64,000 nt of DNA, from positions 1-64,000 of the IMG/VR virus record IMGVR_UViG_3300042908_000811; one strand, 5' to 3'. Position numbers and translations under genes: made by a program. Of this stretch, positions 4,640-55,359 are shown piece by piece (position 1 is the stretch's first letter; each line of letters begins with the position of its first letter). This DNA is from a virus (lineage: Duplodnaviria; Heunggongvirae; Uroviricota; Caudoviricetes). Under the pieces are notes generated by a model. That model was not told where the DNA came from. It ran no database searches and saw nothing but the letters and a program-made list of their open reading frames with translations.

Positions 4640-5554
4640 ATGTATTTATTTGTCTATAAAACTACACACATCAATGGAAAATATTATATTGGTCGCCATC
4701 AAACCAATGATATAAACGACGGGTATCTAGGATCTGGTAAATGGGTTTCTGGAATAAAAGATAAATTAACTTTATCAAGAGAAATCATCGCAGAAACGAA
4801 TTCAATTAAGGAATTATACGAATTAGAAGAATATTATATAGAAAAATATTGGAATGATCCCTTATGTATGAATATGATTAAAGGATCTAATGGTTATACT
4901 TCAGAGGACAATTTTAGAAAAATCGTAAAAGGAACTCATCCTTTTCAGTCGAGAGAAGATGGAACTTCCTTACAAACGGATCGTGTGAATGCTGGAACTC
5001 ATCATTTGTTAAAAAGAGAAGATGGTTCTTCTTTAACACAAGACAGAGTGAAAGAAGGAACTAATCCTTTTCAGTCGAGAGAAGATGGAACTTCCTTACA
5101 AACTGACCGTGTGAATGCTAGAACTCATCATTTGTTAAAAAGAGAAGATGGAAGTTCTGTTGCATCCGATAGAGTGAAAGAGGGAACTAATCCTTTTCAG
5201 ACGAGAGAAGATGGAACTTCCTTACAACAAGATAGAGTCAATTCTGGAACTCACAATTTTTTAAAAAGAGAAGATGGAACTTCTGTTTCATCAGATAACA
5301 ATCTTAAAAGAGTTGCAAATGGAACTCATAATTTTCTAACAAGATCGGATGGAACGAATTTACAAACCGATAAAGTTGCAAATGGAACTCATCTTTTCCT
5401 ACAAAATAAGGGTTTGGTTCCGTGTTATAATAAACAAGGAGAATACAAACGAATTCCAAAAGAAAAATATCATTCCCAAGTCGGGCTAAAGGAAGATTGG
5501 GAATGGGTGCATAATTTGAGCAAAGAAGGCAAGAGAAGAAAACCTTCGTTTTAA
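4640..5554 (+). CDS. GIY-YIG homing endonuclease (Seg/I-TevI-like) with about 8 tandem 21-aa C-terminal repeats
   Basis: N-terminal VYKTTHINGKYYIGRH...GYLGSGKW GIY-YIG motif; repeated GTHxFxxREDGTSLQTDRV units; lone plus-strand gene in minus block. Confidence 0.7.
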   Translation: MYLFVYKTTHINGKYYIGRHQTNDINDGYLGSGKWVSGIKDKLTLSREIIAETNSIKELYELEEYYIEKYWNDPLCMNMIKGSNGYTSEDNFRKIVKGTHPFQSREDGTSLQTDRVNAGTHHLLKREDGSSLTQDRVKEGTNPFQSREDGTSLQTDRVNARTHHLLKREDGSSVASDRVKEGTNPFQTREDGTSLQQDRVNSGTHNFLKREDGTSVSSDNNLKRVANGTHNFLTRSDGTNLQTDKVANGTHLFLQNKGLVPCYNKQGEYKRIPKEKYHSQVGLKEDWEWVHNLSKEGKRRKPSF

Positions 5555-13304: not shown

Positions 13305-13579
13305 TCAATACCAAAAGTTTCTTTGATGTCATCACGAATAGATTTCAGGGCATCATAGGTCCATTCACACGCCATTTCTCCTGCTGCACTATTGCCGCAA
13401 GGTATTCTATAGGTTTCAATCTTATCTATACATTCCTGTACGACAAGGTCGGTGAATTTTTCTAATTCTGAATCATACTGTGTGCTCCAATCAATAACGG
13501 CATCTTGCGGTTTCCATTCCTCGTCCCGCCAGAAAATGAAACCTGCCTTTTCTGCTAATTCTCTAGCTTTAGGATTCAT
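13301..13579 (-). CDS. small protein 92 aa, ...FGIE family
   Basis: MNPKARELAEKAGF...VVQECIDKI...ETFGIE. Confidence 0.5.
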   Translation of the reverse strand: MNPKARELAEKAGFIFWRDEEWKPQDAVIDWSTQYDSELEKFTDLVVQECIDKIETYRIPCGNSAAGEMACEWTYDALKSIRDDIKETFGIE

Positions 13580-14019
13580 TTTACCACCTTTATTTGATAA
13601 CCTAACAAAGATTCAATCTCTGCTACTGTTAATTCTTTTACTTTAGTGGTCTTCTTGAGAAATTCTTCTTCTGTATATTCTACACCATTCAAATACCAAC
13701 AGCGAGTACCATCAGAATATTCAATAGCGGGGCCATCTTCCCGATGAAGATCGCCATTCAAGTACCAATAACGACTGCCTTCATATGATTCAACAGCAGG
13801 ACCATCTTCTCGATGACACTTGCCATTCAAATACCAAGAACGAGTACCATCAGCATGTTCAAAAGCAGGACCATCTATCCGATGACGCTTGCCATTCAAA
13901 TACCAAGCACTAAGACCATTTGCATATTCAATAGCAGGACCATCTTCTCGGTGGTATTTGCCATTCAAATACCAACCACGGTCGCCATTATCAAAGACTT
14001 TTACAGTGTATTCAATCAT
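13576..14019 (-). CDS. MORN-like (WYLNG..HREDGPA) repeat protein, paralog 1 of 4
   Basis: approx 23-aa repeats GxxRxWYLNGxxHREDGPAxEY; C-terminus KELTVAEIESLLGYQIKVVK shared by all four. Confidence 0.65.
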   Translation of the reverse strand: MIEYTVKVFDNGDRGWYLNGKYHREDGPAIEYANGLSAWYLNGKRHRIDGPAFEHADGTRSWYLNGKCHREDGPAVESYEGSRYWYLNGDLHREDGPAIEYSDGTRCWYLNGVEYTEEEFLKKTTKVKELTVAEIESLLGYQIKVVK

Positions 14020-14321
14020 TTTACCACCTTTATCTGATAACCCAATAATGCTTCAATCTCTGCTACTGTTAATTCTTTAGCTTTAAGGGTTTTCTTGTTG
14101 AATTCTTTTTCTGTATATTCTTCGTCGTTCAGATACCAACGACGAGTACCATTAGTAAATTCCATAGCAGGACCATCTTCTCGGTGAAGTTTGCCATTCA
14201 AATACCACCAACGACTACCATTTGAATATTCAATAGCGGGACCATCTTCTCGATGCCGCTTGTCATTCAGATACCACCAACGATCACCATTATCAAAGAC
14301 TTTTACTGTATATTCAATCAT
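14016..14321 (-). CDS. MORN-like repeat protein, paralog 2 of 4
   Basis: same repeats and shared C-terminus; ATGA overlaps. Confidence 0.65.
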   Translation of the reverse strand: MIEYTVKVFDNGDRWWYLNDKRHREDGPAIEYSNGSRWWYLNGKLHREDGPAMEFTNGTRRWYLNDEEYTEKEFNKKTLKAKELTVAEIEALLGYQIKVVK

Positions 14322-14761
14322 TTGACCACCTTTACTGGATACCCTAATAACTCTTCGATTTCTGCTATTGTAAGTTCTTTTGCTTTGAAAGCCAACTTGA
14401 GAAATTCTTCTTCTGTATATTCTTCATCATTCAGATACCAATAACGATCACCATTTGCATATTCAATAGCAGGTCCATCTATCCGATGACGCCTGCCATT
14501 CAAATACCAACAACGAGTGCCATCAATATACTCACAAGCAGGACCATCTTCTCTATGGAGATTGCCATTCAAATACCAACAACGACTACCATCAATGTAC
14601 TCACAAGCAGGACCATCTTCTCGGTGACGATTGCCATTCAAGTACCAATAACGACTACCATCAGCATCTTCAATAGCGGGTCCATCTTCACGATGTCGCT
14701 TGTCATTCAGCCACCAATAACGAGTGCGATTGTCATCAACTTTTACTGTATATTCTATCAC
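14318..14761 (-). CDS. MORN-like repeat protein, paralog 3 of 4
   Basis: same repeats and shared C-terminus. Confidence 0.65.
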   Translation of the reverse strand: MIEYTVKVDDNRTRYWWLNDKRHREDGPAIEDADGSRYWYLNGNRHREDGPACEYIDGSRCWYLNGNLHREDGPACEYIDGTRCWYLNGRRHRIDGPAIEYANGDRYWYLNDEEYTEEEFLKLAFKAKELTIAEIEELLGYPVKVVK

Positions 14762-15078
14762 TTTACCACCTTTACTGCATAGCCCAACAAAGATTCAATT
14801 TCTGCTACTGTTAGTTCTTTTACTTTAGTGGTCTTCTTGATGAATTCTTCTTCAGTATATTCTTCATCATTCAACCACCACTCACGAGTGCCATTAGTAA
14901 ATTCACAAGCGGGACCATCTTCCCGATGGAGATTGCCATTCAAATACCAACAACGAGAACCATTGGCATATTCAATAGCAGCGCCATCTTCTCTATGCAA
15001 TTGACCATTTAAATACCAATAACGATTACCATTATCATTGACTTTTACCGTGTATTCGATCACTTCACCACCTTTCAT
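14758..15078 (-). CDS. MORN-like repeat protein, paralog 4 of 4
   Basis: same repeats and shared C-terminus. Confidence 0.65.
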   Translation of the reverse strand: MKGGEVIEYTVKVNDNGNRYWYLNGQLHREDGAAIEYANGSRCWYLNGNLHREDGPACEFTNGTREWWLNDEEYTEEEFIKKTTKVKELTVAEIESLLGYAVKVVK

Positions 15079-16193: not shown

Positions 16194-16868
16194 TTATTTC
16201 TCCTTTATCAAAAATTTGTTTGAGATCGCCTTAAAGGAAATGCTAGGGTTTTGAATACATTTAAATACCAATCCTTCTCGTTCAGTAATACTATTCAATT
16301 CAGATTTACCTTCGGCATATTTCAACAAGGACTCAATAGAATCAGATATGCCAACTTGTTCAAGAACTGGAACGTGTTTTAATTCTAACGACTCACACAA
16401 ATGCAATCTCTCAATAGAATTATAGTATTCTTGCTTATCAATATCATAGACATCAAAAACATAGAAATCCTGCCCAGAAATCTTGTATGGATTGCCTTGA
16501 ATCGAAGTTCCAATAACTTCTCCTTGAATAGCAATATTCTTTCCAAGTAACTTCAATTTAGATTCCAAATCATACTTCTGACACATTTTCCAGAAAGTGT
16601 TATCATCATTTGGTTTCAGATCCAAATTTCTTGAGCAGACACCGAAATCTCCATCATTATAATAGATGGTACAAGACGATCCGTCCAGCTTTTCTGAAAC
16701 TTCAAAATCATATTCTTTGAAAGATTCAAATTCGTCAACTAGATTTTGAATCCGAGGTTGATCGGTCTTACGAATGAAAGACGGAAACAATCCTTTTATT
16801 TCACCAGCAAGACAAGCAGGAATGGGTGGTTCGTATTTAATAATACCTAGAGGATAAGAAACATCCAA
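16194..16868 (-). CDS. RNA ligase nucleotidyltransferase domain (KxDG motif EKLDGSS); same frame as 16869-17207 across one TGA
   Basis: FEVSEKLDGSSCTIYY motif I; track start is TTG directly after the TGA with no RBS. Confidence 0.6.
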   Translation of the reverse strand: MDVSYPLGIIKYEPPIPACLAGEIKGLFPSFIRKTDQPRIQNLVDEFESFKEYDFEVSEKLDGSSCTIYYNDGDFGVCSRNLDLKPNDDNTFWKMCQKYDLESKLKLLGKNIAIQGEVIGTSIQGNPYKISGQDFYVFDVYDIDKQEYYNSIERLHLCESLELKHVPVLEQVGISDSIESLLKYAEGKSELNSITEREGLVFKCIQNPSISFKAISNKFLIKEK

Positions 16869-17207
16869 TCATTCAAATAACATACTATCTACATTATCTA
16901 ACAGACTTAACGGAAGTAGAAGACCTTGGGATAGAGTACCTCTCAAGCGAACGGTACGCAATCTTTCTCCCTTGATTCCCTCGTATTCTCTTGGTTCATT
17001 ACCTTTTGATAAGAAGGGAGCAATCTCAGTAGGAATAAAACTATCTATCTCGCAATAGATAACAAGATCACCGACGGCATATTTACCCACAGAATCTACA
17101 ACATTCCAACCTTGGATTTTATAAGAACAAATCCTATCAGCACCCTCAATAGGAACAACGTCAAGAACTTTTTGAATCGAAGCAAGTTTTCTCATTTTAG
17201 TCTCCAC
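16869..17207 (-). CDS. N-terminal OB-fold (PheRS/EMAP tRNA-binding-like) module of a DraRnl/Rnl5-type RNA ligase, ending in an in-frame TGA
   Basis: RKLASIQKVLDVVPIEGADRI...GDLVIYCEIDSFIP...LRGTLSQGLLL pattern; stop TGA at 16869-16871. Confidence 0.55.
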   Translation of the reverse strand: METKMRKLASIQKVLDVVPIEGADRICSYKIQGWNVVDSVGKYAVGDLVIYCEIDSFIPTEIAPFLSKGNEPREYEGIKGERLRTVRLRGTLSQGLLLPLSLLDNVDSMLFE

Positions 17208-17225: not shown

Positions 17226-17254
17226 ATTGTAACTGAAGTTTAGAAAAAAGTCAA
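17226..17254 (-). promoter_or_regulatory. early promoter TTGACT-17-TACAAT plus AGTCTTGTAGTT leader
   Basis: minus strand GCTTGACTTTTTTCTAAACTTCAGTTACAATAGTCTTGTAGTTAAAAAAGTGGAGACTAAAATG. Confidence 0.6.
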
Positions 17255-17325
17255 GCGGTCATATTGCTGAATCTCAGCGCCTTCTGCCCAAGCGTGGATA
17301 GGGTCTGCATGTTTGGGTATTGTCA

Positions 17326-18386: not shown

Positions 18387-18842
18387 CTTTTACTTCCCAA
18401 CACCAATGTACAGCAATTTTTCGTTCATTTTTGAACCCTCGGAATATCCTCTATTTCGTTTTTTCTGTTAGTTCGTCGAACACCTCGGATGCAAGAAGAT
18501 TTACTCTCCTGACAATGTCCTCGTAGGATTGCATATTCCCTTTTGGGAGACTGGTCCAGTTACGAATAACCCACAATGCGTGAAGAGCAGGATCTTTCGG
18601 TGGTTTGAACTCTGACATTTTGTACCTCGATTCCAACAGTTAAGTAGAAATATATTCTACTACAAAAAAAGAAAAAAGTCAAGGGGAACGGACACTAATC
18701 CATACTCCAATCCCAATGTACAACAATGAAATCATTTAAACAGTCCTCAAAACAGTAATGCGAATGTCTTCTTCGGATACAGTGGAAATCCATCCAGATT
18801 CACCATCAAATTCGTCGAAGGAATAATATCTCATTAGGTATT

Positions 18843-19157
18843 CTAAGTCAATCCCATTCCAGTAGCATCATATAATTGAGCGTAAATGGGAGAAGCATAT
18901 ACATCATTCTGATTGAATACATTGAAGAATTCTTGTGCTTCTTCCATTGTATCAAAAAAGAATAAACCTCCATTAAGATATTCATCTTTATCAATTTTTG
19001 GTTTCAATGATTCCAAAACAGACTCCCCGATATATGAATCATTGTCATCAAAAGTTAATCCATTATTAATGTAAACAGCAGGTTTGCCTTTTTGAGCAAC
19101 TGCTAGAGAATTGATAGCATTCCAATCAACGTATTCCGGTTTCATCTTTGTCTCCAC
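18843..19157 (-). CDS. hypothetical protein 104 aa
   Basis: ORF track. Confidence 0.5.
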   Translation of the reverse strand: METKMKPEYVDWNAINSLAVAQKGKPAVYINNGLTFDDNDSYIGESVLESLKPKIDKDEYLNGGLFFFDTMEEAQEFFNVFNQNDVYASPIYAQLYDATGMGLT

Positions 19158-19206
19158 GTTTTTTGAACCACAAGACTATTTTACTACAATTTCAGAAAAA
19201 GTCAAG

Positions 19207-19362
19207 TCAAAGAGAACTAACAAACTGACCAATATGGACTTCGTATTCCCTCGATTTCGGTATTTTGTTAAAATATTTTTGCGCTTCCTCAAGCGTCAAA
19301 AAATACTCTAACACCTGTTCAATTTTTTGACCACGCCAAAGTTTGTATACACAATATTCCAT
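19207..19362 (-). CDS. small protein 51 aa (MEYCVYKLWRGQKIEQVLEYF...) with own promoter at about 19380-19425
   Basis: manual translation; TTGACT-16-TACAAT and GGAGACAAAGATG upstream. Confidence 0.4.
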   Translation of the reverse strand: MEYCVYKLWRGQKIEQVLEYFLTLEEAQKYFNKIPKSREYEVHIGQFVSSL

Positions 19363-19626
19363 CTTTGTCTCCACGTTTTTTGAACCACAAGACTATTGTA
19401 ACTGATCTTCAGAAAAAGTCAAGCGTCCCATATTACTTGAGCAGTTGCTTCGTGAGTTTTCTTTTTCTTGGTATCAAAGTAGACAACTTTTCTTAGAACA
19501 GCGGTATGCCCACAACCATCATCAAAATCTTCGTAATAGTATTCAACGACTTTATTTGGTGATCGAGCATAGAAAGGTAAACAGGGTTCAATAGTGTGTT
19601 CAATAACGGTATCTGCAAATTTTAGA

Positions 19627-21639: not shown

Positions 21640-21695
21640 TTTTTTCTCCGGTAAATTTCAACAACAAGACTATCATACCTGATCAGGCGAAAAAG

Positions 21696-22241
21696 TCAAG
21701 CGTAGATTTTATTTTCATCTTCCGGTAGGGATTCAAGGATTGATGGAATTTCTTCTATTGCTAATGGAGTAAGATTCCACAAATCCATTCCAACATTTAA
21801 TTGTTGACGATTTCCTTTCCATTTACTGTGGAGGTGTCCAAATAGGTTTATCGATCCGTAATGTGATTTGTTCCATGCTCTTAATGGATAATGACACATA
21901 ACATAGTGTTTACCATTAATCTTATGATCTAACAAATCAAATACCCTACCATCAAAACAATCAATAAAATCTTGATGCTTTGTTAAATGTACATCGTGAT
22001 TTCCAGATACGAGACAAAGTTTACCATTAAGGCGTCCTAGGAAATCTACAGTTTCTTTAAGTTTTCCAAAAGAAACATCTCCAAGAATAAAAATTTCATC
22101 GTTCTTAGAAACTTTAGAATTCCAACGCTCAACAATGGTATCATTCATCAATTCTACTGAAGAAAATTGACGAGCATCAGGTTCATATTCTAATATTTTT
22201 TTATGAAACGCATGAATGTCGCTTGTAAAGAATATGCTCAT
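21696..22241 (-). CDS. calcineurin-like metallophosphoesterase (protein phosphatase or polynucleotide 2',3'/3'-phosphatase)
   Basis: SDIH, LGD, GNHD, CHYP, FGHLH motif series; ATGA-coupled to kinase and RNA ligase 1. Confidence 0.7.
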   Translation of the reverse strand: MSIFFTSDIHAFHKKILEYEPDARQFSSVELMNDTIVERWNSKVSKNDEIFILGDVSFGKLKETVDFLGRLNGKLCLVSGNHDVHLTKHQDFIDCFDGRVFDLLDHKINGKHYVMCHYPLRAWNKSHYGSINLFGHLHSKWKGNRQQLNVGMDLWNLTPLAIEEIPSILESLPEDENKIYA

Positions 22242-22654
22242 AGTACCTCGAATAATTCTGAAATATCGTATTGAAATCTTTGCTTCATTTTTTCTACAGT
22301 TTCTTCTGGAACATTATGGATTGATCCAAAATTGTTCTGACAAAGAATTACAGTTGGAATGATATTATACTTCTTAGCAAGTTCAAAATAAGGTTTTAGT
22401 TCTTTCTTGGTTGTGAAGGTATTGGATACAACTACCATTTCACCTTCAGCTAACACTCTATCAGTTTGTTCTTGACACCACTTATGAGCTTGTCTAAGTT
22501 TTGAAGCATCAAAATTATAATTACCATCCGAATCTATAAAATACATATCTGCTTCAAAATGTTCAGAAAAAGGATATGCAAAACTCATATCGCCAGCAAG
22601 TGTACTTTTGGACGAACCTGGCAATCCTCGAATTAAAATCATTCTTTTAGTCAA
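22238..22654 (-). CDS. P-loop polynucleotide 5'-kinase-like protein (T4 Pnk kinase-domain-like)
   Basis: LIRGLPGSSKSTLA Walker A resembles T4 Pnk ILTIGCPGSGKSTWA; sits between phosphoesterase and Rnl1. Confidence 0.6.
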   Translation of the reverse strand: MTKRMILIRGLPGSSKSTLAGDMSFAYPFSEHFEADMYFIDSDGNYNFDASKLRQAHKWCQEQTDRVLAEGEMVVVSNTFTTKKELKPYFELAKKYNIIPTVILCQNNFGSIHNVPEETVEKMKQRFQYDISELFEVL

Positions 22655-23582
22655 GATAGTTCTCCAAAAAAGTACGAGTAAAGTTTAATCGAGATTGTTC
22701 ATCCATTTCAGAAAATACTTCTCTGTTTTCTTTAATATGTCCGACCAAGGGATAGTATTCTTCATCAATCTTACTCAAGTCACCATTTAACAAAGAATCA
22801 ATATTTTGCTTACGAGCAAACAATTTGTTAATCAAGTAATATGGAGATTTTAATTTAAACGATTCCCCATCTTTTGTGTATGCAACATAACCTTCATGTT
22901 TTACCTTCTTAACTCTTTCCTTTAATTCGCCTAGAGTAGTATAAGTTGGAACTGGAACATTCCACAATCCCAACATATAATATTCACGATCAAATTCAGA
23001 ACTACAATACCAATCCAATCCATAGTCAACCATCTGAGAAATTGACGTGGAATGGGATATTTTATCATTATAACCATTATCTCTTTGACCCAAGAAATAC
23101 ACTCCTTCTTTTTCTGGAATAATATGAGGATCAGAAGAATGACAAATTTCAAACATAAAAGTAGTATTATGAATGAAATTCTTCTCAGGAATTGCTTTTA
23201 ATATCATTTCCCTTGCTAACTTAGCATAATCAGAATCCAAAGATCCAGTAGTTGCAACTACAACACCATCTTTATACTTTGATGCCGTTGCCATAAATCC
23301 ATTATACTTCTTGATTGCTAAGACCTTTTCATCATCAGATAATACTGGAGAGTTCTTTTCTATTCCGTAATTATAGATTTTATCGAAAGGATGAACAATA
23401 ATGTTGAAATCTTTATCTACTACCAGACCACGACACTTTTCAAGATAACGATTCCAAAGCCCATCAAAAAAGACTTTTCTTTTATATTTTAATACAAATA
23501 AATCAGTATAGGATTCAGATTTTTTCATCTGAACAAGATTAGAATTGTTTTCTACATATTCTTTGAGTTGTGACTGTAACAT
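22647..23582 (-). CDS. rnlA: RNA ligase 1 (T4 RnlA/gp63-like)
   Basis: KCRGLVV, KKYNG (motif I), HEGYVAYTKDGESFKLKS match T4 Rnl1 ECRGIMF, KEDG, IEGYVAVMKDGSHFKIKS as recalled from memory. Confidence 0.75.
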   Translation of the reverse strand: MLQSQLKEYVENNSNLVQMKKSESYTDLFVLKYKRKVFFDGLWNRYLEKCRGLVVDKDFNIIVHPFDKIYNYGIEKNSPVLSDDEKVLAIKKYNGFMATASKYKDGVVVATTGSLDSDYAKLAREMILKAIPEKNFIHNTTFMFEICHSSDPHIIPEKEGVYFLGQRDNGYNDKISHSTSISQMVDYGLDWYCSSEFDREYYMLGLWNVPVPTYTTLGELKERVKKVKHEGYVAYTKDGESFKLKSPYYLINKLFARKQNIDSLLNGDLSKIDEEYYPLVGHIKENREVFSEMDEQSRLNFTRTFLENYLD

Positions 23583-23633
23583 ATTTACGCTCCTTAAACA
23601 GAAAGTAAATCATACTACAGTCTTGAGAAAAAG

Positions 23634-24464
23634 TCAAGTCCAGAGGGATCTACGCAGACGAATAAGTTTTATCAACATTTCTTCATCTTCTTGAAAATAA
23701 TCCTCCTCGATTTTATTCATAAGATCATGAATCCTTCTGGTTTCTAATTTTTCTTCTTCGGTTTCTGGTGTACACATATAATCCCAAAGGCTATCGCCGC
23801 TATTGGTTTTTGTTTCGTAACGGGCGTTCCACCCAGAAACTTCATAAGGGTCGGGTCTATTAGGTCTGGTGAATTTCCACCAATGGTAGAGTTCAGAGAT
23901 TTCTTGAGCTTTCAGAGATTGTTCAGTAGGTTGACCATATTCTGGATCATCTTTACTTAATCCCCAAGATTCGTCTTTGATAAGAGTAGTTTCCCAATCA
24001 AGATAATCTAGACCAGATTGAGCATTTCTCCAAGTTCTGCTCTTAAACCAACCTTTTGAATGCCAAGGCGCATTATATTTTACTGCAGAAGCTTCATCGC
24101 AAATGATATTTTTCCATGCAACTTCCACCTCGACAAAATTCACAAGCTCATCAAATAAACAATGAAGAATTCTTTCATCTAGTTCGTGCCATTCACCTTT
24201 TTTCAAATTGGACGTGAGTTGATGAGTTTTGGTTACAAATCTATTAACTAACCAATATTTCACAGAATAGAGTTTATCAATAGGATACATAATAAAGTCT
24301 TGAATCTTATCAAGAGCAGTTTCAGCAAGCCAATATCGAAATGGATGTTTCGTTTTAGCAGTTTGCTTCCAATCTCGCCATTCTTTAGAAGTTCCGCATT
24401 CTGGTTGAGGAGTACCTCTTACCCAATTAGCGAATTTCCCGTTTGACCAATATCTGTTTCTCAT
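23634..24464 (-). CDS. hypothetical protein 276 aa
   Basis: ORF track. Confidence 0.5.
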   Translation of the reverse strand: MRNRYWSNGKFANWVRGTPQPECGTSKEWRDWKQTAKTKHPFRYWLAETALDKIQDFIMYPIDKLYSVKYWLVNRFVTKTHQLTSNLKKGEWHELDERILHCLFDELVNFVEVEVAWKNIICDEASAVKYNAPWHSKGWFKSRTWRNAQSGLDYLDWETTLIKDESWGLSKDDPEYGQPTEQSLKAQEISELYHWWKFTRPNRPDPYEVSGWNARYETKTNSGDSLWDYMCTPETEEEKLETRRIHDLMNKIEEDYFQEDEEMLIKLIRLRRSLWT

Positions 24465-28893: not shown

Positions 28894-29403
28894 TTATAAT
28901 AAACTATTTATTCTTTTAATAGTATCTTTCCAGGATAGGTGATGAATACCAATTCCACCCATACTGTTCCAATTATCAATAGTAGATTTGGTATCATCTA
29001 TCAAAATTCTTCCCGGTTTTGAATAATAATGCTTATACTTTTTTCCTGGAACGAATACCGGATGAAATGGTACATTATATTTCTTCAACCAAAACCCTTT
29101 TTGTGCTGACAATTCTTTTATGTATTCTTCTTTTGCGGTCGAAGTAAGAATACAAATAGGAATCTTGTGTTGTTTATGGACACCCTTTAGATACTCCAAG
29201 CCTTCTTTAAAATCCGGCATAGGTTCTAGAACAGCAAATTGTTTGTTTTCAATAAAATCATGAAATCGCTTTTTATGAAGTTTTTTACGTTTTGTATTAG
29301 AAGGATTATAATCTTCTTCCGGGTCCGCTTTATAGAGTTGAGCGTATCTTTTCTTGAAATCAGAAAGTACGCCATCTTGGTCAACAAAAATTTCACTTAT
29401 CAT
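28894..29403 (-). CDS. 5'(3')-deoxyribonucleotidase (NT5C/HAD-type, T5 dmp-like)
   Basis: N-terminal IFVDQDGVLSDF resembles the VLVDMDGVLADFE signature. Confidence 0.65.
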   Translation of the reverse strand: MISEIFVDQDGVLSDFKKRYAQLYKADPEEDYNPSNTKRKKLHKKRFHDFIENKQFAVLEPMPDFKEGLEYLKGVHKQHKIPICILTSTAKEEYIKELSAQKGFWLKKYNVPFHPVFVPGKKYKHYYSKPGRILIDDTKSTIDNWNSMGGIGIHHLSWKDTIKRINSLL

Positions 29404-29866
29404 TTTTGAGTAATTTTGATATTTTAAATAGATTTAATTCTGCGTAACTTAATTTCGATCTAAGTTCGCCATTAATAACAGTTCCACGGGAATCAAGAAC
29501 TTGAGTTATTTGTTTGAGCAGACATTCCGTAAGAATTATCATTTCTTCTTTTTCAAAGGATTTCATATATTCACACGTAAAAAAGGAGGGATATTTGGTA
29601 ATAAGGAATCCCTCCTGAACCTCACCTAACTCAAGCGGCTAGGGCAAATTTTGAATCATTTGCAATTATTGTATTTACTTCTTTGACCGGGATATCCCAA
29701 TCCTAACGACTTCAGTATTGCCGAGCGCATATAAACTATTTACTACCACGTCGAAACTGATCTTCCCCATCAAAAGCATACTATTCATTAGCTCTTACTA
29801 GATATAAACTTGATCAGTTATTATATCGTTCGCTTTCTCGGTTATAGTAACCTTCCTAGTATGCTT

Positions 29867-29898
29867 TTGGTGGAGAAGGCGGGAATCGCACCCGCGTC
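29867..29898 (-). other. isolated tRNA 3' fragment (T-arm plus acceptor 3' strand plus CCA) with no 5' half
   Basis: minus strand GGACGCGGGTGCGATTCCCGCCTTCTCCACCA; no complementary 5' acceptor upstream; inside a 650-bp ORF-free gap. Confidence 0.5.
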
Positions 29899-30079
29899 CG
29901 CAATAACTTTCGTTTATATGTTTACGCTGTTATAAACTTTCAACAATTAAACCAAACAAATATGCGACGGACCCAATCATACCAAGAAAAAATATCAAAA
30001 GAATAGTTAATAATACATTTTTTGTTAAATCTTCTAGCATAATTGAGTCCCCGCAATAGTTTATATTAAACTATTTATA

Positions 30080-32081: not shown

Positions 32082-32630
32082 CTACTCTCCATAAAGAAGC
32101 ATATAAACGTCCGAAGCAACGTCATGTTTAGGGTTATGTTTCCAAACGAGATTTTCAAAATCAAACCCTGGAATTTTACAATATCCTCCTCGAGAAGTTT
32201 CTTTAAGAATATCTATTGCAGTCCTAAAGTCCCGCCAAGAAGAATACCTAAACAAAGGTTCCTCTTTTAAAGAATATTTACAAAGGTGATCGCTAATGTA
32301 TTGGTCAAAAGAACCTCTGATAAAAACAACACTTTCAGAATTGTTTGTTTTATCTTTTATGTAGGATTTAAGAACATCTATCCCTTCTTTAGCAGACAAA
32401 TCAGAATCAGAAGGTTTGAATGAAATATCTCTAGTCAATTTTGGAACTTTGGTATTCCACCAATCCATGGTATCTTTGGATACTGTTCTTTTATATTTCT
32501 GAATTTGTTCTTTGACGTCAAACTTTACAAGCAAAGTATTTTCTACCAGGTCTTCATAAGAATATTTCTCGGTTTCATCAAACCAAAGTATTGCCGCAGA
32601 TAATACTACGGCAGTTTCTCTGGTATCCAA
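32082..32630 (-). CDS. hypothetical protein 182 aa
   Basis: ORF track. Confidence 0.5.
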   Translation of the reverse strand: MDTRETAVVLSAAILWFDETEKYSYEDLVENTLLVKFDVKEQIQKYKRTVSKDTMDWWNTKVPKLTRDISFKPSDSDLSAKEGIDVLKSYIKDKTNNSESVVFIRGSFDQYISDHLCKYSLKEEPLFRYSSWRDFRTAIDILKETSRGGYCKIPGFDFENLVWKHNPKHDVASDVYMLLYGE

Positions 32631-32726: not shown

Positions 32727-34883
32727 TCAAGAAATGAAGTCAATGAATTTTTTCAGGAATATTCTGGTATTCACTCTATTACTCATAACTTTATGAAACT
32801 CTTTTGACATAGTTGTAACAGTTTTACTATCAAAACCATCTGATAATGATTCTTCTTTATTCAATAGATTACCCTTAACAAAATAGAATTTATCAAACTC
32901 AGACGGAACTTCAATACAATTATCTCTATTAAATTCCCTAACTTTTGATGCTCCATCTGCACCAAAACCAAAATAAGAATAAACATTACGTTTTAGTTCT
33001 TTGGCGCTTGCTAACCTAAAGGCAAACATTCTAAAGTTAGAAATTTGTTTTGTAAACTTAACACAAGCATTAGTTTCTTGAATTCTGTTTCTCGGTTTAA
33101 TCAACAAGGTTTCTTTAGTTTGTTTGTCTCTAAAATAGATATTTAAAAATTCTGTTTCTATTGTATAATTGCGAGCATATCCATTCTGATTAACATAAAA
33201 ACAAATACCATGAGATTCGCCATCTGTAAGGTAAATACTATTTACAATCTGTACTTTAGTCCTAGTTTGGAACTCTTCAACAACTTTCTTTGATAGAAAA
33301 ATAGAATGATTCAATGGAGTATTACCAAGACTAAACCATTCTGGAGGATATACCTTTGGACCATGCGCACCTTCATAATGACCAAAACTGTATCCATCAA
33401 AATTCAAAAGACAATTACTAGCATATACAAATTCTGAATTAGACATTCTGGAAGAAAATACATTATACAACATTACTGGTTGCAAAATCAGTTCTTTTTC
33501 TTTGAATTTTTTATTCCTATTTGGATAATTAGTAGAAAACGCATACACTTCAAATGGAATATTTTGTTTTCTACAAAATATAAGCATAGTCAGCAATTGC
33601 TTAATGGTATCTTTCATCCAATCAACCATTGAACCAGACCAATCCAAAAAGAATACAAGTCCGTGACTTTGAGACTTTGGAATTGAAGTAGACCGTTTAA
33701 AGATATCTTCTGAAATCTTATATGAATACAATTTATTAAGATGAATATCTCCTGTTTTGGATACTTTTGCTTTCTTTCTGCCTTTGGCGTTCTTTTTAAG
33801 ATTAAATTCTTTAATCAAATAAGACACTACAGTAGAATTTTCAACTTTAAACTTATTATACGCCGTTTGATCTAATACAAACGGCATTTGTTTTCTATTA
33901 TACCAGTCGCTATAATAAGCTGTAGAGAAATAATTAGAAAGTTTTTTATACAAGACTTTATAATCTTCTACATATTCTGATATTTTAATATCAGGAATAT
34001 CTACATATACAGAATCTTTACTAGATTCAGAATATAATTCCTCTTTTCTAATTTCTGCTTCTTCTTGAGTAAATGATTTTAGGTTACTCTGAATAAATTC
34101 TTCCAAAGAGCCTAATTCATCACCACCAATAGAATTAGGTAATGTGCTATTATAGTTTCCAGAATCACTAGATTCTGAGTCTTGTTCACCCTCTTCTGTT
34201 TCTCCAGATAGCGGGGCGATATTGTTAGTTATGGAATCAAAAGGTTCATAATCACCATAAGAAGGTTTGTTTTCACCCAAACCGTCTGATTCTTCTTCAT
34301 ATCTTTTTTCTAATTGTTCTTTAATATAATTTTGAATTTCCAAAGAAACATTAATAGTTTCTTCAAAGGTTTCTGTAGTTTCTACTTTATTCAGAAGGAC
34401 TTTTTCTTCATCGTTGAATTCGATAAAAGAAAGGAATCCAATTTTACAGTAAAGGTTGATTTTATCAATCAAATTGAGCGAAGACAAGTCGTCTACTTTA
34501 GACAAACCAAAGAAATCAGAATTGGATAATTCTTTATATGCACGATAATAAATTGAACGCAAACCAGGATATTTCCGTTTAACCAACCTTTCAATACGAC
34601 TATCTTCTACAACATTAACGATTGTATGATTTAAAGATTTTTTTCTACAAATTTCAACCCAATCAACAGGCGAATTGATACTATGACCAACCTCATGCGA
34701 CAACATCAGGTCAAGGCAGTCTGTAGACAGGTCATCCTTAAACTTAGGCACAACAAGAAGTCTATTTTTGGTATCAAAAAACGCGCTTCTAACGCCAGAC
34801 CTCTGCTCAACAAGTAGGTTCTCTTCAGACATCAAGCGAGCAAGGTTGGATTTGGATTCTGTAAGGTTCATAATCTTCCTCAA
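32727..34883 (-). CDS. CobT-like protein with C-terminal von Willebrand factor A domain
   Basis: 718 aa; VFFLDWSGSMVD MIDAS-type DxSGS motif; phage CobT homologs usually pair with a CobS AAA ATPase (present at 36352). Confidence 0.55.
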   Translation of the reverse strand: MRKIMNLTESKSNLARLMSEENLLVEQRSGVRSAFFDTKNRLLVVPKFKDDLSTDCLDLMLSHEVGHSINSPVDWVEICRKKSLNHTIVNVVEDSRIERLVKRKYPGLRSIYYRAYKELSNSDFFGLSKVDDLSSLNLIDKINLYCKIGFLSFIEFNDEEKVLLNKVETTETFEETINVSLEIQNYIKEQLEKRYEEESDGLGENKPSYGDYEPFDSITNNIAPLSGETEEGEQDSESSDSGNYNSTLPNSIGGDELGSLEEFIQSNLKSFTQEEAEIRKEELYSESSKDSVYVDIPDIKISEYVEDYKVLYKKLSNYFSTAYYSDWYNRKQMPFVLDQTAYNKFKVENSTVVSYLIKEFNLKKNAKGRKKAKVSKTGDIHLNKLYSYKISEDIFKRSTSIPKSQSHGLVFFLDWSGSMVDWMKDTIKQLLTMLIFCRKQNIPFEVYAFSTNYPNRNKKFKEKELILQPVMLYNVFSSRMSNSEFVYASNCLLNFDGYSFGHYEGAHGPKVYPPEWFSLGNTPLNHSIFLSKKVVEEFQTRTKVQIVNSIYLTDGESHGICFYVNQNGYARNYTIETEFLNIYFRDKQTKETLLIKPRNRIQETNACVKFTKQISNFRMFAFRLASAKELKRNVYSYFGFGADGASKVREFNRDNCIEVPSEFDKFYFVKGNLLNKEESLSDGFDSKTVTTMSKEFHKVMSNRVNTRIFLKKFIDFIS

Positions 34884-36351: not shown

Positions 36352-37509
36352 ATGTTTACAGAAGCAGAAAAGTCGTTCGTTTCTATTATTGAATCCAAGT
36401 TCGGTAAAGATTATGTAATTTCTCGTAAAGAAATTGACGAACTTTATTCAGAAAACAAACCCAATGTTTCTTATCCTTATTGGTTAACCAAAGAACCGTA
36501 TAAGGTTGCTTGGGGTAAGTTTAAAGTTCCTTCTACTGATGATATCGCCGAAGTTATTATGCCAAACCTAAATCCAGTAATTGAAAATGTAGTACCAATG
36601 AAAAAACAAGTTCATGAAATGAAAGATTCTACTTCTTTAATACCTCAAAAAGATCCCAATTTTGAAAAGTTCGGTTTCTATACAGACCTGAAGAATATTA
36701 TTAAATCAAAAAAGTTCTTTCCTATCTTTATTTCTGGACTTTCTGGTATTGGGAAAACTTTCTTGGTTGAACAAATTTGTGCAGAACTAAAGCGTGAATG
36801 TGTTCGTGTAAATTTCTCTGTTGAAACTGATTCCGTAGACTTAATTGGCGGACCAAGTTTGGTTGATGGTAATATTGTTTATAATGATGGTCCCGTTATT
36901 GAATGTTTAGAAAACGGATATGTATTACTGCTTGACGAAATCGATCGTTCAAATCCAAATAATATTCTTATTTTGAATGGTATTCTTGAAGGTAGAGGAT
37001 TTTATAATCCAAAAACCAAAAAGTTCATTCAAGCGAAAGAAGGTTTCAATGTAATTGTTACAGCCAACTCAAAAGGCTATGGAGACGAAACTGGTAAATT
37101 CTTATCTCAGATTCTTGATTCTGCTTTTCTTGAACGGTTCGTTATTACTCTGGAACAACCTTTTCCTACTGAAAAAGTAGAAACAAAAATTCTCTCACAT
37201 CATTTAGAAGATTCTGACTTTATTGATAAGTTGGTACGTTGGGCGAATGTTATTCGTAAGACTTATCAGAACGGTGGTGTTGATGAAATTATTTCAACCA
37301 GACGTTTGGTACATATTGCAGAAACGTATAACATATTTAAGAATAAATTGAAGGCGATTGAACTGTGCTGTTCAAGGTATGAAACCCATGTCAAAGAAAG
37401 TTTTTTGGATCTGTATACAAAAATAGATTCTGGAGTGAGTTTTGACGCTGACGGTAATGTTGTTGGTGAAGAAAAAATTCACCCAATGCCAGATGATATA
37501 GCTTTTTAA
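36352..37509 (+). CDS. CobS/MoxR-like AAA+ ATPase
   Basis: Walker A ISGLSGIGKTF, Walker B YVLLLDEIDRS. Confidence 0.6.
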   Translation: MFTEAEKSFVSIIESKFGKDYVISRKEIDELYSENKPNVSYPYWLTKEPYKVAWGKFKVPSTDDIAEVIMPNLNPVIENVVPMKKQVHEMKDSTSLIPQKDPNFEKFGFYTDLKNIIKSKKFFPIFISGLSGIGKTFLVEQICAELKRECVRVNFSVETDSVDLIGGPSLVDGNIVYNDGPVIECLENGYVLLLDEIDRSNPNNILILNGILEGRGFYNPKTKKFIQAKEGFNVIVTANSKGYGDETGKFLSQILDSAFLERFVITLEQPFPTEKVETKILSHHLEDSDFIDKLVRWANVIRKTYQNGGVDEIISTRRLVHIAETYNIFKNKLKAIELCCSRYETHVKESFLDLYTKIDSGVSFDADGNVVGEEKIHPMPDDIAF

Positions 37510-53420: not shown

Positions 53421-53495
53421 TTCGGGATCGTCTAATTGGTAGGACACCAGCCTTTGAAGTTGTGAATCGTGGTTCGAGTCCACGTCCCGAAACCA
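53421..53495 (+). tRNA. tRNA-Gln (anticodon TTG; one mismatch in anticodon stem)
   Basis: acceptor TTCGGGA/TCCCGAA, T-arm CGTGGTTCGAGTCCACG, CCA encoded; manual fold. Confidence 0.5.
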
Positions 53496-53503
53496 AATTT
53501 TAT

Positions 53504-53578
53504 GGTGGTTATGATGTAATGGTAGCACCCCTCTCTGTGAAAGAGGAAGCACGGGGTCAGAACCCGTTGCTCACCCCA
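53504..53578 (+). tRNA. tRNA-His (anticodon GTG) with extra G(-1) opposite discriminator C
   Basis: CCTCT-CTGTGAA-AGAGG anticodon arm; CCA encoded; weak D-stem. Confidence 0.5.
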
Positions 53579-53580
53579 AA

Positions 53581-53656
53581 GCATCTGTGACAGTGATGGT
53601 TCATGTACCGGACTGAAAATCCGAGGATGTTGGTTCGATTCCAACCGGATGCACCA
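53581..53656 (+). tRNA. tRNA-Phe (anticodon GAA)
   Basis: acceptor GCATCTG/CGGATGC, loop CTGAAAA, T-arm GTTGGTTCGATTCCAAC, CCA. Confidence 0.65.
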
Positions 53657-53768
53657 ATTTAGGTCTAACCGAAAGGCGACCTTTGATACATAACCTTGTT
53701 GGCATTATGCCTAAGCAATAACAAGTGTCCTAAAACGACCGGCGAGCGTTCACTGTATCAAGAATTTT

Positions 53769-53843
53769 AGTCGGGTAACTCAGAGGCAGAGTGACGCATT
53801 TACACTGCGTAAGTCGAGATATCGTAATTCTCCCCGACTACCA
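53769..53843 (+). tRNA. tRNA-Val (anticodon TAC)
   Basis: acceptor AGTCGGG/CCCGACT, D ACTC/GAGT, ACGCA-TTTACAC-TGCGT, CCA. Confidence 0.65.
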
Positions 53844-54060
53844 TTTATGCCCCTGTAGTGTAATGAATAGCACGCAATGCTACGGACATTGTAGAGAGGG
53901 TTTGAATCCTTCTGGGGGTGCATATTTTATGGAGGGTTATCTAGCCGGGGATGCTAGCACTGCCTTGAAAGCAGTTGGAACCGAAAGGTCAGGGGATCAA
54001 TACCACCAACCCTCCGCAGTTTTAATTCCTTATAAATATTTCCTTTATGAGGAGTCATAT

Positions 54061-54762
54061 ATGTTTAAACCAACTTATCTTTATGTTAAGACCCATAATA
54101 AAACAGGGTTGAAGTATTTTGGAAAAACCGTTTCGAAAGATCCGCAAAAATATCAAGGTTCTGGAAGTTATTGGAAAAAACATATTAAAAAACACGGTTA
54201 CGATGTAACTACGGAAATAATTGGGCTCTTTAATGATGAAAAAGAATGTAAAAAAGTTTCTACGAAGTTTAGTTCAGAAAACGATATTGTTAAATCTAAA
54301 AAATGGGCAAATCTAAAAGAAGAAACATTAGATGGCGGTTGGGACCATATAGGTAAAGATCATTTTACGCATCAATATCCGCATTTAAAAGATATGAATT
54401 CAAAACTTTTAGAAAAAAGAAAAAGCGATGAAAATTTTGATGCGGAATATAAAAAAGCAATATCAAGAGGGATAAACAATAAATCTGAAGAAGAAAGACG
54501 AGATTGGAATAAAAAAATATACGAGAGTAAAGTAAAGAATAATTCTTTTAGTGCAGATCATCTACAATCGCAAGAAGTTATACAAAAACGAAATACAACA
54601 TTTAAATTGATTGGACACCAAAAGGGCGAAAAAAATTCTCAATATGGAACTTGTTGGGTTTGGTGTGAAAAAGAAGGTAATAAAAAAATAAAGAAAGAAT
54701 TATTACAAGAATACTTGAATAAAGGTTGGGAAAAGAAATATATTCCAGGATATAACAAATAG
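54061..54762 (+). CDS. GIY-YIG homing endonuclease (Seg-like) inside the tRNA cluster
   Basis: MFKPTYLYVKTHNKTGLKYFGKT...YQGSGSYWKKH; GAGGAG RBS; track ORF 53791 starts upstream across tRNA-Val. Confidence 0.6.
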   Translation: MFKPTYLYVKTHNKTGLKYFGKTVSKDPQKYQGSGSYWKKHIKKHGYDVTTEIIGLFNDEKECKKVSTKFSSENDIVKSKKWANLKEETLDGGWDHIGKDHFTHQYPHLKDMNSKLLEKRKSDENFDAEYKKAISRGINNKSEEERRDWNKKIYESKVKNNSFSADHLQSQEVIQKRNTTFKLIGHQKGEKNSQYGTCWVWCEKEGNKKIKKELLQEYLNKGWEKKYIPGYNK

Positions 54763-54847
54763 AAGATAATATCAGATGGTTCTGATACCTGCTTGGAAAG
54801 CAGTGTGATCCGAAAGGGTTGCAGTTCAATTCTGCTGTCTTCTGCCA
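54761..54847 (+). tRNA. tRNA-Ser (anticodon GGA), long variable arm
   Basis: acceptor AGAAGAT/GTCTTCT, loop TTGGAAA, variable arm GTGATCCGAAAGGGTTGC, CCA. Confidence 0.6.
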
Positions 54848-54893
54848 AATTTATATTTAAATAAATAAATATTTATTTTTACGGAACAAATAA

Positions 54894-55130
54894 ATGAAAA
54901 CGTATAAAGAGTTTATAGAAAATATTTTTGAATCCAAAAATAGTATTCCAGTTGATAAAGGAGTTCTCCACACTAGAGATAGTTTATCTAATAAAGTACA
55001 AAAATTTGCCCCGGAAACCACCGACGATGAAAAATGGAACAAAGTTAAAGCAATAGAACATTTGAGAAAAGGGAATATGTTAACAGCAAAATATTATTTA
55101 CATAAAATTGGAATCAAAGATAAAATTTGA
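54894..55130 (+). CDS. hypothetical protein 78 aa
   Basis: ORF track. Confidence 0.45.
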   Translation: MKTYKEFIENIFESKNSIPVDKGVLHTRDSLSNKVQKFAPETTDDEKWNKVKAIEHLRKGNMLTAKYYLHKIGIKDKI

Positions 55131-55160: not shown

Positions 55161-55174
55161 TAAAAATAGTCAAT

Positions 55175-55260: not shown

Positions 55261-55269
55261 AAATTTAAC

Positions 55270-55352: not shown

Positions 55353-55359
55353 ATTTATT

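Follow-up and report, generated by a model that had tools for sequence, protein, structure and literature searches.

The window, i.e. the whole stretch of 64,000 nucleotides analyzed here, carries on its minus strand the genes for an Rnl1-type RNA ligase, a polynucleotide kinase-like protein and a metallophosphoesterase, which probably form one transcription unit for an RNA end-healing and end-sealing pathway made of three polypeptides. We infer that this trio most likely repairs RNA cut by the host; the individual activities, the substrate (tRNA or another RNA) and a counter-defence role are predicted in the same way from the sequences. In the mechanism that we propose, the aq_1665-type metallophosphoesterase would take off the cyclic or 3' phosphate to leave a 3'-OH, the small P-loop kinase would add a phosphate to the 5'-OH, and the short Rnl1-type ligase would seal the break via a lysyl-AMP formed on K92. 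The logic would thus be that of the Pnkp and Rnl1 proteins of phage T4, with the HAD phosphatase swapped for an unrelated metallophosphoesterase and one activity per protein. The first-pass annotation had already put forward a T4-like repair logic; the protein families, the catalytic residues and the gene linkage speak for it, the function itself being a prediction. As hundreds of phages already sequenced carry this gene set, there is nothing unusual about the arrangement, and our result is a sound annotation, not a discovery.

Organization of the three-gene locus

Three translationally coupled minus-strand genes had been proposed at this locus, and they were confirmed (Table 1). The ORFs are separate and co-directional, in the order ligase, kinase, phosphoesterase, and adjacent ones overlap: the ligase stop and the kinase start share 8 nt, and an ATGA holds both the stop codon of the kinase gene and the start codon of the phosphoesterase gene. 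The TTG start of the kinase is located 7 nt downstream of a GGAG; an alternative start, the ATG at 22642, would give a protein of 134 aa. Promoter-like sites bracket the stretch from the ligase to the phosphoesterase, which suggests that the trio is transcribed as one unit. The -35 element of the upstream site includes the TGA stop of the preceding gene, which encodes 276 aa. We counted 25 copies of the extended promoter motif, CTTGACTTTTT, across the window, for about 4 expected. All three genes are under purifying selection, with dN/dS values of 0.11-0.21 against the relative that is 90% identical.

Table 1. Positions in the window of the genes and sites discussed in the text.
Feature	Position	Strand	Remarks
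Second ligase, Rnl5 (DraRnl) family	16194-17207	-	PF21189 + PF09414; split by in-frame TGA
In-frame TGA of the second ligase	16869-16871		at the linker between the OB and nucleotidyltransferase domains
Promoter-like site of the second ligase	17226-17254	-	its own
Promoter-like site TTGACT-N16-TATGAT	21672-21699	-	overlaps phosphoesterase stop; 3' boundary of the unit
Phosphoesterase gene	21696-22241	-	181 aa ORF
Kinase gene	22238-22654	-	138 aa ORF from TTG start
Ligase gene	22647-23582	-	311 aa ORF
Promoter-like site TTGACT-N17-TATGAT	23609-23637	-	just upstream of ligase
NT5C-type deoxyribonucleotidase	28894-29403		sole HAD protein in the window
tRNA cluster	53421-59884	+	about 25 genes; 23 by ARAGORN, 2 by Rfam
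tRNA added by Rfam	53505-53575		
tRNA added by Rfam	56789-56867		

Predicted ligase, kinase and phosphoesterase

The ligase can be assigned as a short and distant ATP-dependent RNA ligase of the T4 Rnl1 type, with its catalytic residues all conserved. As Pfam is silent (no match at E <= 0.01, and thus no PF09511, a domain carried by many close homologs), this assignment rests on PHROGs, NCBIfam, sequence matches to the PDB and fold comparison. The protein matches phrog_562 at 1e-45 and T4 Rnl1 itself, by sequence, at an E of about 1e-3. It scores 27.6 bits against the RnlA equivalog TIGR02308, whose cut-off (242 bits) lies far above, and is to be classified as a distant relative of RnlA and not as an equivalog. 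An AlphaFold2 model was obtained with a pLDDT of 90.4. When this model was compared with known structures using Foldseek, T4 Rnl1 came first (top three matches 5tt6, 2c5u and 9do4, E 3e-11 to 8e-11, TM 0.58-0.60), and the next neighbours were the ligase domains of fungal Trl1. The identity with T4 Rnl1 in the structural match is about 18%. The earlier description of this protein as RnlA-like thus agrees, as far as the Rnl1 type is concerned, with both its phrog_562 match and its best structural match.

The predicted nucleophile, K92, lies in a KxNG motif I (K92-x-N94-G95). Motif IV corresponds to E230-G231 and motif V to K243-x-K245, which aligns with that of T4 Rnl1. Further upstream, C50-R51-G52 aligns with the T4 segment 'eCRG' and provides the equivalent of T4 Arg54, and P65-F66-x-K68-x-Y70 aligns with 'PMEKFFN', which holds T4 Lys75 and Phe77. 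Across 41 homologs, there is no variation at R51, K68, K92, N94, G95, E145, E230, G231, K243 and K245, and all the residues essential in the T4 Rnl1 nucleotidyltransferase have invariant counterparts in the family. The protein is very likely an active RNA ligase. The region of T4 Rnl1 past motif V is its tRNA-specificity domain. This C-terminal helical domain of about 120 aa is absent from the window's ligase, for which the model shows about 60 helical residues past motif V versus about 120 in T4 Rnl1; since most of the T4 C-terminal region is missing, tRNA specificity is not to be assumed.

The second gene encodes a likely stand-alone polynucleotide 5'-kinase. Its 138 aa correspond to the kinase domain alone (Pfam AAA_33, 3.6e-10), and no C-terminal HAD (DxDxT) 3'-phosphatase is fused to it. 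The Walker A motif reads GLPGSSKST and the catalytic residue is predicted to be Asp36. The protein matches two families annotated as polynucleotide kinase (phrog_2071 and phrog_505). With the profile of its family, matches were obtained to T4 Pnk (1ly1/1ltq; about 100 positions, at about 5e-7), to the kinase domain of CthPnkp (3e-5) and also to Pnkp1, mammalian PNKP and the fungal RNA kinase RazKIN; most of the long matches of this profile to solved structures are polynucleotide kinases. Used as a single sequence, the kinase has its best PDB match with 9d8a (E 0.003), a stand-alone tRNA-splicing RNA 5'-OH kinase. In addition, homologs at 46-53% identity are found as kinase-Rnl1, Rnl1-kinase and kinase-HAD_PNKP fusions. 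We thus rejected an unrelated nucleotide kinase on the basis of the family-profile matches and of these natural fusions to Rnl1 or HAD_PNKP; the protein groups with polynucleotide kinases, in line with the Pnk-like 5'-kinase first suggested. Residues G10, G13, K16 and D36 are invariant in the family. Ser15, just before the P-loop lysine, is a glycine in 140 of the 141 homologs. This Gly-to-Ser change is limited to the window's own kinase clade; NTP binding may be weaker or different as a result.

The third protein can be described as an intact small binuclear metallophosphoesterase of the uncharacterised aq_1665 family. It matches the aq_1665-like small metallophosphoesterases (phrog_547) over its full length, in sequence as well as in fold, and all the metal motifs are present (DxH, GD, GNH[DE], H and GHxH), as anticipated for the calcineurin-like phosphoesterase of the initial reading. 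In an alignment of 56 sequences, D8, H10, G54, D55, H117, G135, H136 and H138 are invariant, and G80, N81, H82 and D83 are conserved in at least 90%. A phosphoesterase of the lambda-phosphatase or Pnkp type was rejected: the protein belongs to the aq_1665 family and does not cluster with lambda-type Ser/Thr protein phosphatases. The solved structure nearest to it is that of a protein with no assigned function.

Conservation of the gene set and other RNA-related genes of the window

No match to the INPHARED phage collection was obtained in a nucleotide search with a 24-kb stretch, and a more distant nucleotide search gave short patches at most. As there is no close cultured relative, the genomic context was taken from protein-level and metagenome searches. 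The best protein matches of the window are with phages of Burkholderiales hosts, and its GC content is about 33%. In metagenome relatives with 90% and 51% ligase identity, the order of the trio is kept while the flanking genes differ. Genes that are shuffled in order but still linked are seen in rV5-like phages, in Aeromonas phiA009 and in Ralstonia RSP15. Over 600 phage records contain a relative of the ligase, and over 600 one of the kinase, with nearly identical counts per host genus in INPHARED; either the trio or the ligase-kinase pair is thus carried by over 600 sequenced phages. A second, different type of P-loop kinase was found in 58 of 80 Rnl1 loci from IMG/VR. Similar gene neighbourhoods have already been described (PMC9503650, PMC7824862, PMC12846349), and an RNA-repair role has been predicted for them by comparative genomics (PMC9503650, section 3.7.3; PMC7824862, section 3.4.9). 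The literature that we found on the ligase clade, the kinase clade and the aq_1665 phosphoesterase family consists of such predictions and of genome reports, with no biochemical work.

The role of the phosphoesterase is the weakest step of the RNA-repair reading. We lean slightly towards a 3'-end healing enzyme, predicted to act on RNA ends with a 2',3'-cyclic phosphate or a 3'-phosphate. According to another and rather unlikely reading, RNA repair would be a matter of the ligase and the kinase only, and the phosphoesterase would merely be co-transcribed with them and have another job, for instance the breakdown of cyclic or linear nucleotides that signal in host immunity, the dephosphorylation of proteins or the processing of DNA ends. 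Such a job would fit a weak NCBIfam match of the protein to the ligase-associated nuclease PdeM, as well as the wider distribution of its family compared with the ligase (1610 vs 723 phage records). In a reciprocal sample of 80 phosphoesterase loci, for which a shallower alignment was used, neither a ligase nor a kinase was detected within 6 kb in 35 cases, and the authors of the Pakpunavirus study list a kinase and two ligases and name no phosphatase (PMC12846349). However, the phosphoesterase lies within 6 kb and on the same strand in 75 of the 80 IMG/VR Rnl1 loci, usually directly upstream; its gene shows the start/stop overlap with the kinase gene in the window's clade, and the linkage survives the shuffling of gene order in distant phages. 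Furthermore, an Rnl1-type ligase requires a 3'-OH, and no member of the other recognised RNA 3'-end-healing families (2H, cRec, HD, Tpt1) was seen in the window, in a Pfam scan which covered its 81 ORFs of at least 75 aa at E <= 1e-4 and which small or divergent proteins could escape; the sole HAD protein is the NT5C-type deoxyribonucleotidase of Table 1.

Building on the 3'-end healing role, one could tentatively go further and regard the aq_1665-type phosphoesterases as an uncharacterised class of RNA 3'-end healing enzymes, with 2',3'-cyclic phosphodiesterase and 3'-phosphatase activities, that would have taken the place of the T4 Pnkp HAD phosphatase across a large and mostly uncultured group of phages; we hold this to be quite possible, although not the better bet. 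They would work there as free subunits, next to kinases of interchangeable types and to a short Rnl1 without most of the T4 C-terminal domain. Given these three features, the range of RNA substrates could be broader than in T4.

The window had also been credited with a second ligase of the Rnl5 type. The family assignment holds, with an N-terminal OB domain (PF21189, 1.4e-26) followed by a nucleotidyltransferase domain (PF09414, 6.4e-33), but the gene is not a single ORF since an in-frame TGA separates the two domains (Table 1). The two halves score 73.8 and 121.8 bits against TIGR02306, i.e. 195.6 bits together for a cut-off of 151 bits. A global recoding of TGA was rejected: TGA is the ordinary stop codon of the kinase and phosphoesterase genes and also ends the upstream 276-aa gene, and two nearly identical metagenome contigs (99.95-99.97%) have GGA at this position, where homologs have Gly or Asp. 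The intact protein, of 333 aa, is encoded on at least 23 contigs, and the allele is thus intact in the wider population. For the sequence as given, the claim of two ligases fails because of this nonsense codon.

The tRNA genes, first estimated at about 27, number about 25. Their cluster is about 30 kb from the trio and on the opposite strand, with no physical linkage between them. The window also encodes a permuted, two-piece tmRNA, an Rv2179c-like exoribonuclease and an RNase H-like protein. On this basis, one would wonder whether the module could be a housekeeping one, which would process or recycle RNAs of the phage such as its tRNAs and its tmRNA, the latter having to be cut in two, or mend RNA that the phage nucleases themselves break during host takeover; in the window, one sees neither a host defence gene nor a target, which would suit this idea. 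We nevertheless find it improbable. The maturation of tRNAs and of a two-piece tmRNA proceeds by cleavage and trimming, not ligation, and would not call for a ligase, and the same module is found in phages with few tRNAs and without tmRNA, such as the rV5-like phages. Moreover, the only experimentally established role of a phage kinase/phosphatase and Rnl1 pair is that of T4, which counters the anticodon nuclease PrrC (PMC3592404, PMC1484252).

Finally, the PHROG and GenBank label 'RNA ligase and tail fiber protein attachment catalyst' would make the ligase mainly a tail-fibre attachment factor, as in the second activity of T4 gp63, with neighbour genes unrelated to it; this is most improbable, since the label is inherited from T4 Rnl1, to which the identity is so low, natural fusions of such ligases with the kinase exist, and the gene adjoins the kinase and the phosphoesterase among small genes, mostly with no assigned function and behind sigma-70-like promoter sites, profile searches of the neighbouring ORFs having recognised no structural genes nearby.

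Significance and comparison with known systems

For this window, our analysis chiefly provides a correct annotation of an arrangement which is already in published comparative genomics. If the repair of host-cut RNA by the trio were true, this widespread gene set would represent a second, non-homologous way for phages to heal broken RNA ends, and a function would be given to an orphan metallophosphoesterase family for which a crystal structure (1xm7) has existed since 2004. Defences that cleave tRNAs are now known to be common, including PrrC, RloC, PARIS, some retron effectors, Cas13 and OLD. Knowing which phages are able to repair such damage, beyond replacing tRNAs, would aid host-range prediction.

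One of the closest parallels is T4, whose Pnkp (pseT) and Rnl1 (gene 63) are likewise phage-encoded and combine a 5'-kinase, 3'-end healing and Rnl1-type sealing. The two ligases share the motif I lysine, the equivalents of Arg54 and Lys75, the EG of motif IV and the KxK of motif V. However, kinase and HAD phosphatase form a single protein in T4, whereas the phosphatase of the window would be a separate binuclear metallophosphoesterase beside a stand-alone kinase of 138 aa; the window's ligase is shorter (311 aa vs 374-375 aa), and its three genes are contiguous and overlapping, unlike those of T4. As for the phosphoesterase, the Aquifex aeolicus protein aq_1665 (PDB 1xm7) is a cellular protein with no assigned function, whereas its relative in the window is phage-encoded.

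A likeness to the bacterial Pnkp/Hen1 systems had also been suggested. Bacterial Pnkp unites three activities (PMC3675462, PMC2190708): 5'-kinase, of the P-loop type, 2',3'-phosphatase, provided by a binuclear metallophosphoesterase, and ATP-dependent ligase. The likeness holds for this triad of activities, predicted here for the window, but not for the architecture: in bacteria, the three are fused in one polypeptide instead of three ORFs, and come with a Hen1 2'-O-methyltransferase partner and a lambda-phosphatase-like module. Neither of the latter two was found in the window, where none of the 81 ORFs of at least 75 aa matched a methyltransferase family.

Among phages, those of the rV5-like group encode homologs of the three proteins, all adjacent (34% identity for the ligase, 44% for the kinase and 36% for the phosphoesterase). 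Their ligase gene and the kinase-phosphoesterase pair run in divergent directions, whereas the window's trio is collinear and overlapping, and their locus contains sirtuin, cRec and MazG genes, none of which was found by Pfam among the window's ORFs of at least 75 aa. Pakpunaviruses, such as the Pseudomonas phage Adele, encode a 5'-kinase without phosphatase domain and two distinct RNA ligases (PMC12846349). They share with the window a stand-alone kinase, an Rnl1-like ligase, a second ligase of the Rnl5 type and a tRNA cluster, and Pseudomonas phages dominate the matches to the kinase and to both ligases. The window is nevertheless unrelated to them at the nucleotide level, its phosphoesterase is translationally linked and its second ligase is interrupted. 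The latter has the same N-terminal OB and then nucleotidyltransferase domains as the Rnl5 ligases of Deinococcus (DraRnl) and Naegleria (NgrRnl), from which it differs by the TGA that splits its reading frame at the domain linker.

A last comparison concerns the stand-alone RNA 5'-OH kinases MciKIN and RazKIN from Mucorales, in which Asp36 is essential (PMC11571804). Like the predicted kinase of the window, they are stand-alone proteins with an RNA ligase as a distinct partner, and the aspartate that they require is invariant in the window's family. On the other hand, these enzymes are eukaryotic, prefer GTP and take part in tRNA splicing, and their similarity to the phage protein is low and mostly found around the P-loop.

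Gene organisation of the module and features of the window

The first-pass annotation placed a ligase, a kinase and a phosphoesterase in three minus-strand ORFs, and their coordinates match exactly. The ligase ATG is preceded by AGGAG at 7 nt, and the kinase TTG, which overlaps the ligase stop by 8 nt, is preceded by GGAG at 7 nt; an alternative kinase ATG lies 4 nt past the ligase stop. A single ATGA holds both the end of the kinase gene and the beginning of the phosphoesterase gene. An extended -35-like motif, CTTGACTTTTT (variant CTTTACTTTTT), occurs at 25 sites in the window for about 4 expected. It is mostly intergenic and on the coding strand, often includes the TGA that ends the gene before it, and is probably the early-promoter consensus of the phage. 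Given the overrepresentation of this motif and the promoter-like sites around the trio, the three genes appear to form a transcription unit of their own, which the main sigma factor of the host probably reads.

Coordinates of the features discussed (window positions)
Feature	Position	Strand	Details
Ligase	22647-23582	-	311 aa
Kinase	22238-22654	-	138 aa, TTG start
Phosphoesterase	21696-22241	-	181 aa
Promoter-like TTGACT-N17-TATGAT	23637-23609	-	directly upstream of ligase; -35 element includes stop of preceding gene
Second promoter-like site	21699-21672	-	overlaps phosphoesterase stop
CTTGACTTTTT example sites	23628-23638, 21690-21700, 19413-19423, 19196-19206, 18673-18683, 17245-17255
Second ligase	16194-17207	-	DraRnl (Rnl5) family: OB domain PF21189, nucleotidyltransferase domain PF09414
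Identical leaders	17193-17207, 19143-19157, 19360-19374	-	V-E-T-K-M if translated from GTG
Tandem paralogous ORFs	13576-15078	-	four ORFs, 101-147 aa
Homing-endonuclease-like ORFs	4640-5554, 56878-57672	+	GIY-YIG/T5orf172-type and HNH-type matches; one within tRNA cluster
Two-piece (permuted) tmRNA	29584-29989	-	Rfam RF04321, 104.8 bits; tag peptide ANDSKFALAA
Exoribonuclease/RNase H-like region	~32082-32630	-	tentative position, via synteny with metagenome relative L004
CobT-like gene	32727-34883	-	phrog_459
CobS/MoxR-like AAA gene	36352-37509	+	phrog_249
tRNA cluster	53.4-59.9 kb	+	~25 genes, ARAGORN + Rfam
Rfam-only tRNA-like sequences	53505-53575, 56789-56867	+	37.1 and 35.2 bits; no ARAGORN call

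The window does carry a large tRNA set, of about 25 genes (23 from ARAGORN and 2 from Rfam), below the roughly 27 initially counted; four ARAGORN tRNAs (Tyr, Thr-tgt, Asn, Ala) are absent in the Rfam list. Two-piece tmRNAs are already known from aquatic phages such as Melnitz, and a glutamine riboswitch has been described there (PMC9004378). The window also encodes a Rv2179c-like 3'-5' exoribonuclease domain (PF16473) as well as a protein resembling RNase H, both of which could be relevant to RNA processing. The large CobT-like and CobS-like genes are divergent, on either side of a strand switch at ~34.9-35.0 kb. The four tandem paralogs start with IEYTVKV.DNG.R.WYLNG..HRE, their repeats having ~80% nucleotide identity. 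Finally, three minus-strand genes have an identical leader, GTGGAGACTAAAATG at the second ligase; they probably start at the ATG instead, in which case the leader would be a conserved ribosome-binding one.

Families and active sites of the three proteins

The kinase matches AAA_33 in Pfam (3.6e-10) as well as phrog_2071 and phrog_505, 'polynucleotide kinase'. Against PDB sequences, its family profile matches T4 Pnk (5e-7), the CthPnkp kinase domain (3e-5) and Capnocytophaga Pnkp1 (7e-5), each over ~100 positions, whereas mammalian PNKP is matched more weakly (~1e-3) over a shorter stretch and the other matches mostly cover the P-loop only. Its relatives, 8255 at E 1e-3 or better among 1.84 billion representatives, are mostly stand-alone proteins of 125-145 aa. 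Three longer ones (46-53% identity) are fusions, namely kinase-Rnl1 (P0335), Rnl1-kinase (P0441) and kinase-HAD_PNKP (P0436), the last with the same architecture as T4 Pnkp. These fusions and the long profile matches support the proposed Pnk-like assignment of the kinase. The residues G10, G13, K16, E34, D36, T79 and H113 are invariant in the family. The top single-sequence PDB match, RazKIN, is a stand-alone RNA 5'-OH kinase of tRNA splicing, and its family has an essential Asp36 (PMC11571804). The Walker A motif, GLPGSSKST, has a Ser before the lysine (codons 15-16, 22607-22612) where 140 of the 141 matched homologs have Gly. The variant is limited to the window and to relatives that are at least 90% identical; it is fixed in that clade, where a dN/dS of 0.15 indicates purifying selection.

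The ligase has no match in Pfam and falls into phrog_562 (PHROGs) at 1e-45. T4 Rnl1 structures are matched at E ~1e-3 (phmmer), the motif V, 'CRG' and 'PxxKxxN' segments being aligned. Residues invariant in an alignment of 41 homologs include R51, K68, K92-x-N94-G95, E145, E230-G231 and K243-x-K245, the counterparts of known essential residues of T4 Rnl1. The three best PDB matches of an AlphaFold2 model (pLDDT 90.4) are T4 Rnl1 (E ~3e-11, TM ~0.6), with fungal Trl1 ligase domains next. Only ~60 helical residues are found past motif V, so the ~120-residue C-terminal domain of T4 Rnl1, the domain implicated in tRNA specificity, is largely absent. The protein scores only 27.6 bits against the NCBIfam T4 RnlA model, whose cut-off is 242 bits, and is not a T4 RnlA equivalog. 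At E 1e-5 or better the family counts 2358 cluster representatives, whose usual length is 290-310 aa and whose contigs often measure 100-370 kb. What stands of the T4 RnlA-like label is thus membership of the Rnl1 clade, given the phrog_562 match, the catalytic residues and the fold: sequence and model point to a distant Rnl1-clade enzyme, presumably active.

The phosphoesterase scores 27.9 bits against Metallophos_2, barely over the Pfam threshold, and falls into phrog_547 at 1e-53. All five binuclear-metal motifs are kept in its family (56 homologs), as expected of the metallophosphoesterase first proposed. Structural (model pLDDT 96.5) and profile comparisons rejected both a lambda-type protein phosphatase and a Pnkp-type phosphatase, and place the protein in a separate, biochemically uncharacterised family, named after aq_1665 of Aquifex aeolicus.

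Linkage across phages and the second ligase

Two JGI metagenome contigs, L012 and L013, match the window at 99.95-99.97% identity; a search of 50,697 phage records gave no nucleotide-level relative. Relatives at 90% (L004, L005) and 51% (L006-L008) ligase identity keep the gene order (ligase, kinase, phosphoesterase) and the overlapping ends, but have different flanking genes. The three genes are also together, but reordered, in cultured phages: phosphoesterase, ligase, kinase in Aeromonas phiA009; HD hydrolase, kinase, ligase, two small ORFs, phosphoesterase in Ralstonia RSP15; and, in the rV5-like HMD-6, a ligase divergent from a kinase-phosphoesterase pair and adjoining cRec, SIR2 and pyrophosphohydrolase genes. 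A Pfam scan of the 81 window ORFs of at least 75 aa found no sirtuin, cRec, MazG, 2H, Tpt1, HD, RtcB or methyltransferase; the window thus has a minimal version of the rV5-like neighbourhoods. In INPHARED, 723 records have the ligase and 626 the kinase, with near-identical counts per host genus, and 1610 have the phosphoesterase.

In IMG/VR, the phosphoesterase lies within 6 kb of the ligase and shares its strand in 75 of 80 ligase-picked loci, most often immediately upstream, so the association is strong from the ligase side. In 80 loci picked by the phosphoesterase, Rnl1 was present within 6 kb in 24 cases, Rnl5 in 14, a kinase in 30 and none of these in 35; from this side it is frequent, not exclusive. 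The kinase type of the window occurs in only 2 of the 80 ligase-picked loci (L014-L093), and 58 carry another type of P-loop kinase, of ~155 aa (LVGVPGSGKSTW...), with marginal likeness to it (blastp E 0.03). One kinase type looks displaced by a non-homologous one, which suggests that such kinases are interchangeable within the module.

The two halves of the second ligase score 73.8 and 121.8 bits with TIGR02306 and are divided at the domain linker by an in-frame TGA (16869-16871, minus strand), where homologs have Gly or Asp. Recoding was ruled out, TGA being a normal stop in this phage. Since L012 and L013 have GGA (Gly109) at this codon and the intact 333-aa protein (P0196) is found on at least 23 metagenome contigs, the stop in the window copy reflects a nonsense allele or else an error in sequencing. 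A TTG directly follows the TGA, so the protein may be re-initiated there or made as two polypeptides. The earlier claim of two ligases holds for the population and fails for the window sequence. Two ligase types beside one kinase are a known pattern, for example in Pakpunavirus (PMC12846349).

A proposed RNA repair pathway and known systems

These families, the intact active sites, the selection and the linkage are best explained by a pathway of three proteins that heals and seals RNA. In it, the 3'-OH would come from the phosphoesterase and the 5'-phosphate from the kinase, with the short Rnl1 as the sealing enzyme. The phosphoesterase is the weakest link: a substrate is known for none of its family, and many of its loci have no ligase close by.

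The closest descriptions of this gene set are computational, and calcineurin-like phosphatases have been noted in some jumbo-phage RNA-repair sets (PMC7824862, section 3.4.9); the trio thus belongs to a known kind, and the first-pass reading was correct in outline. The bacterial Pnkp/Hen1 system, to which the trio had been likened, is a functional analogue only. The proposed pathway would work like T4 Pnkp and Rnl1, the closest experimentally established system; the activities, the substrate and the counter-defence role are inferred.
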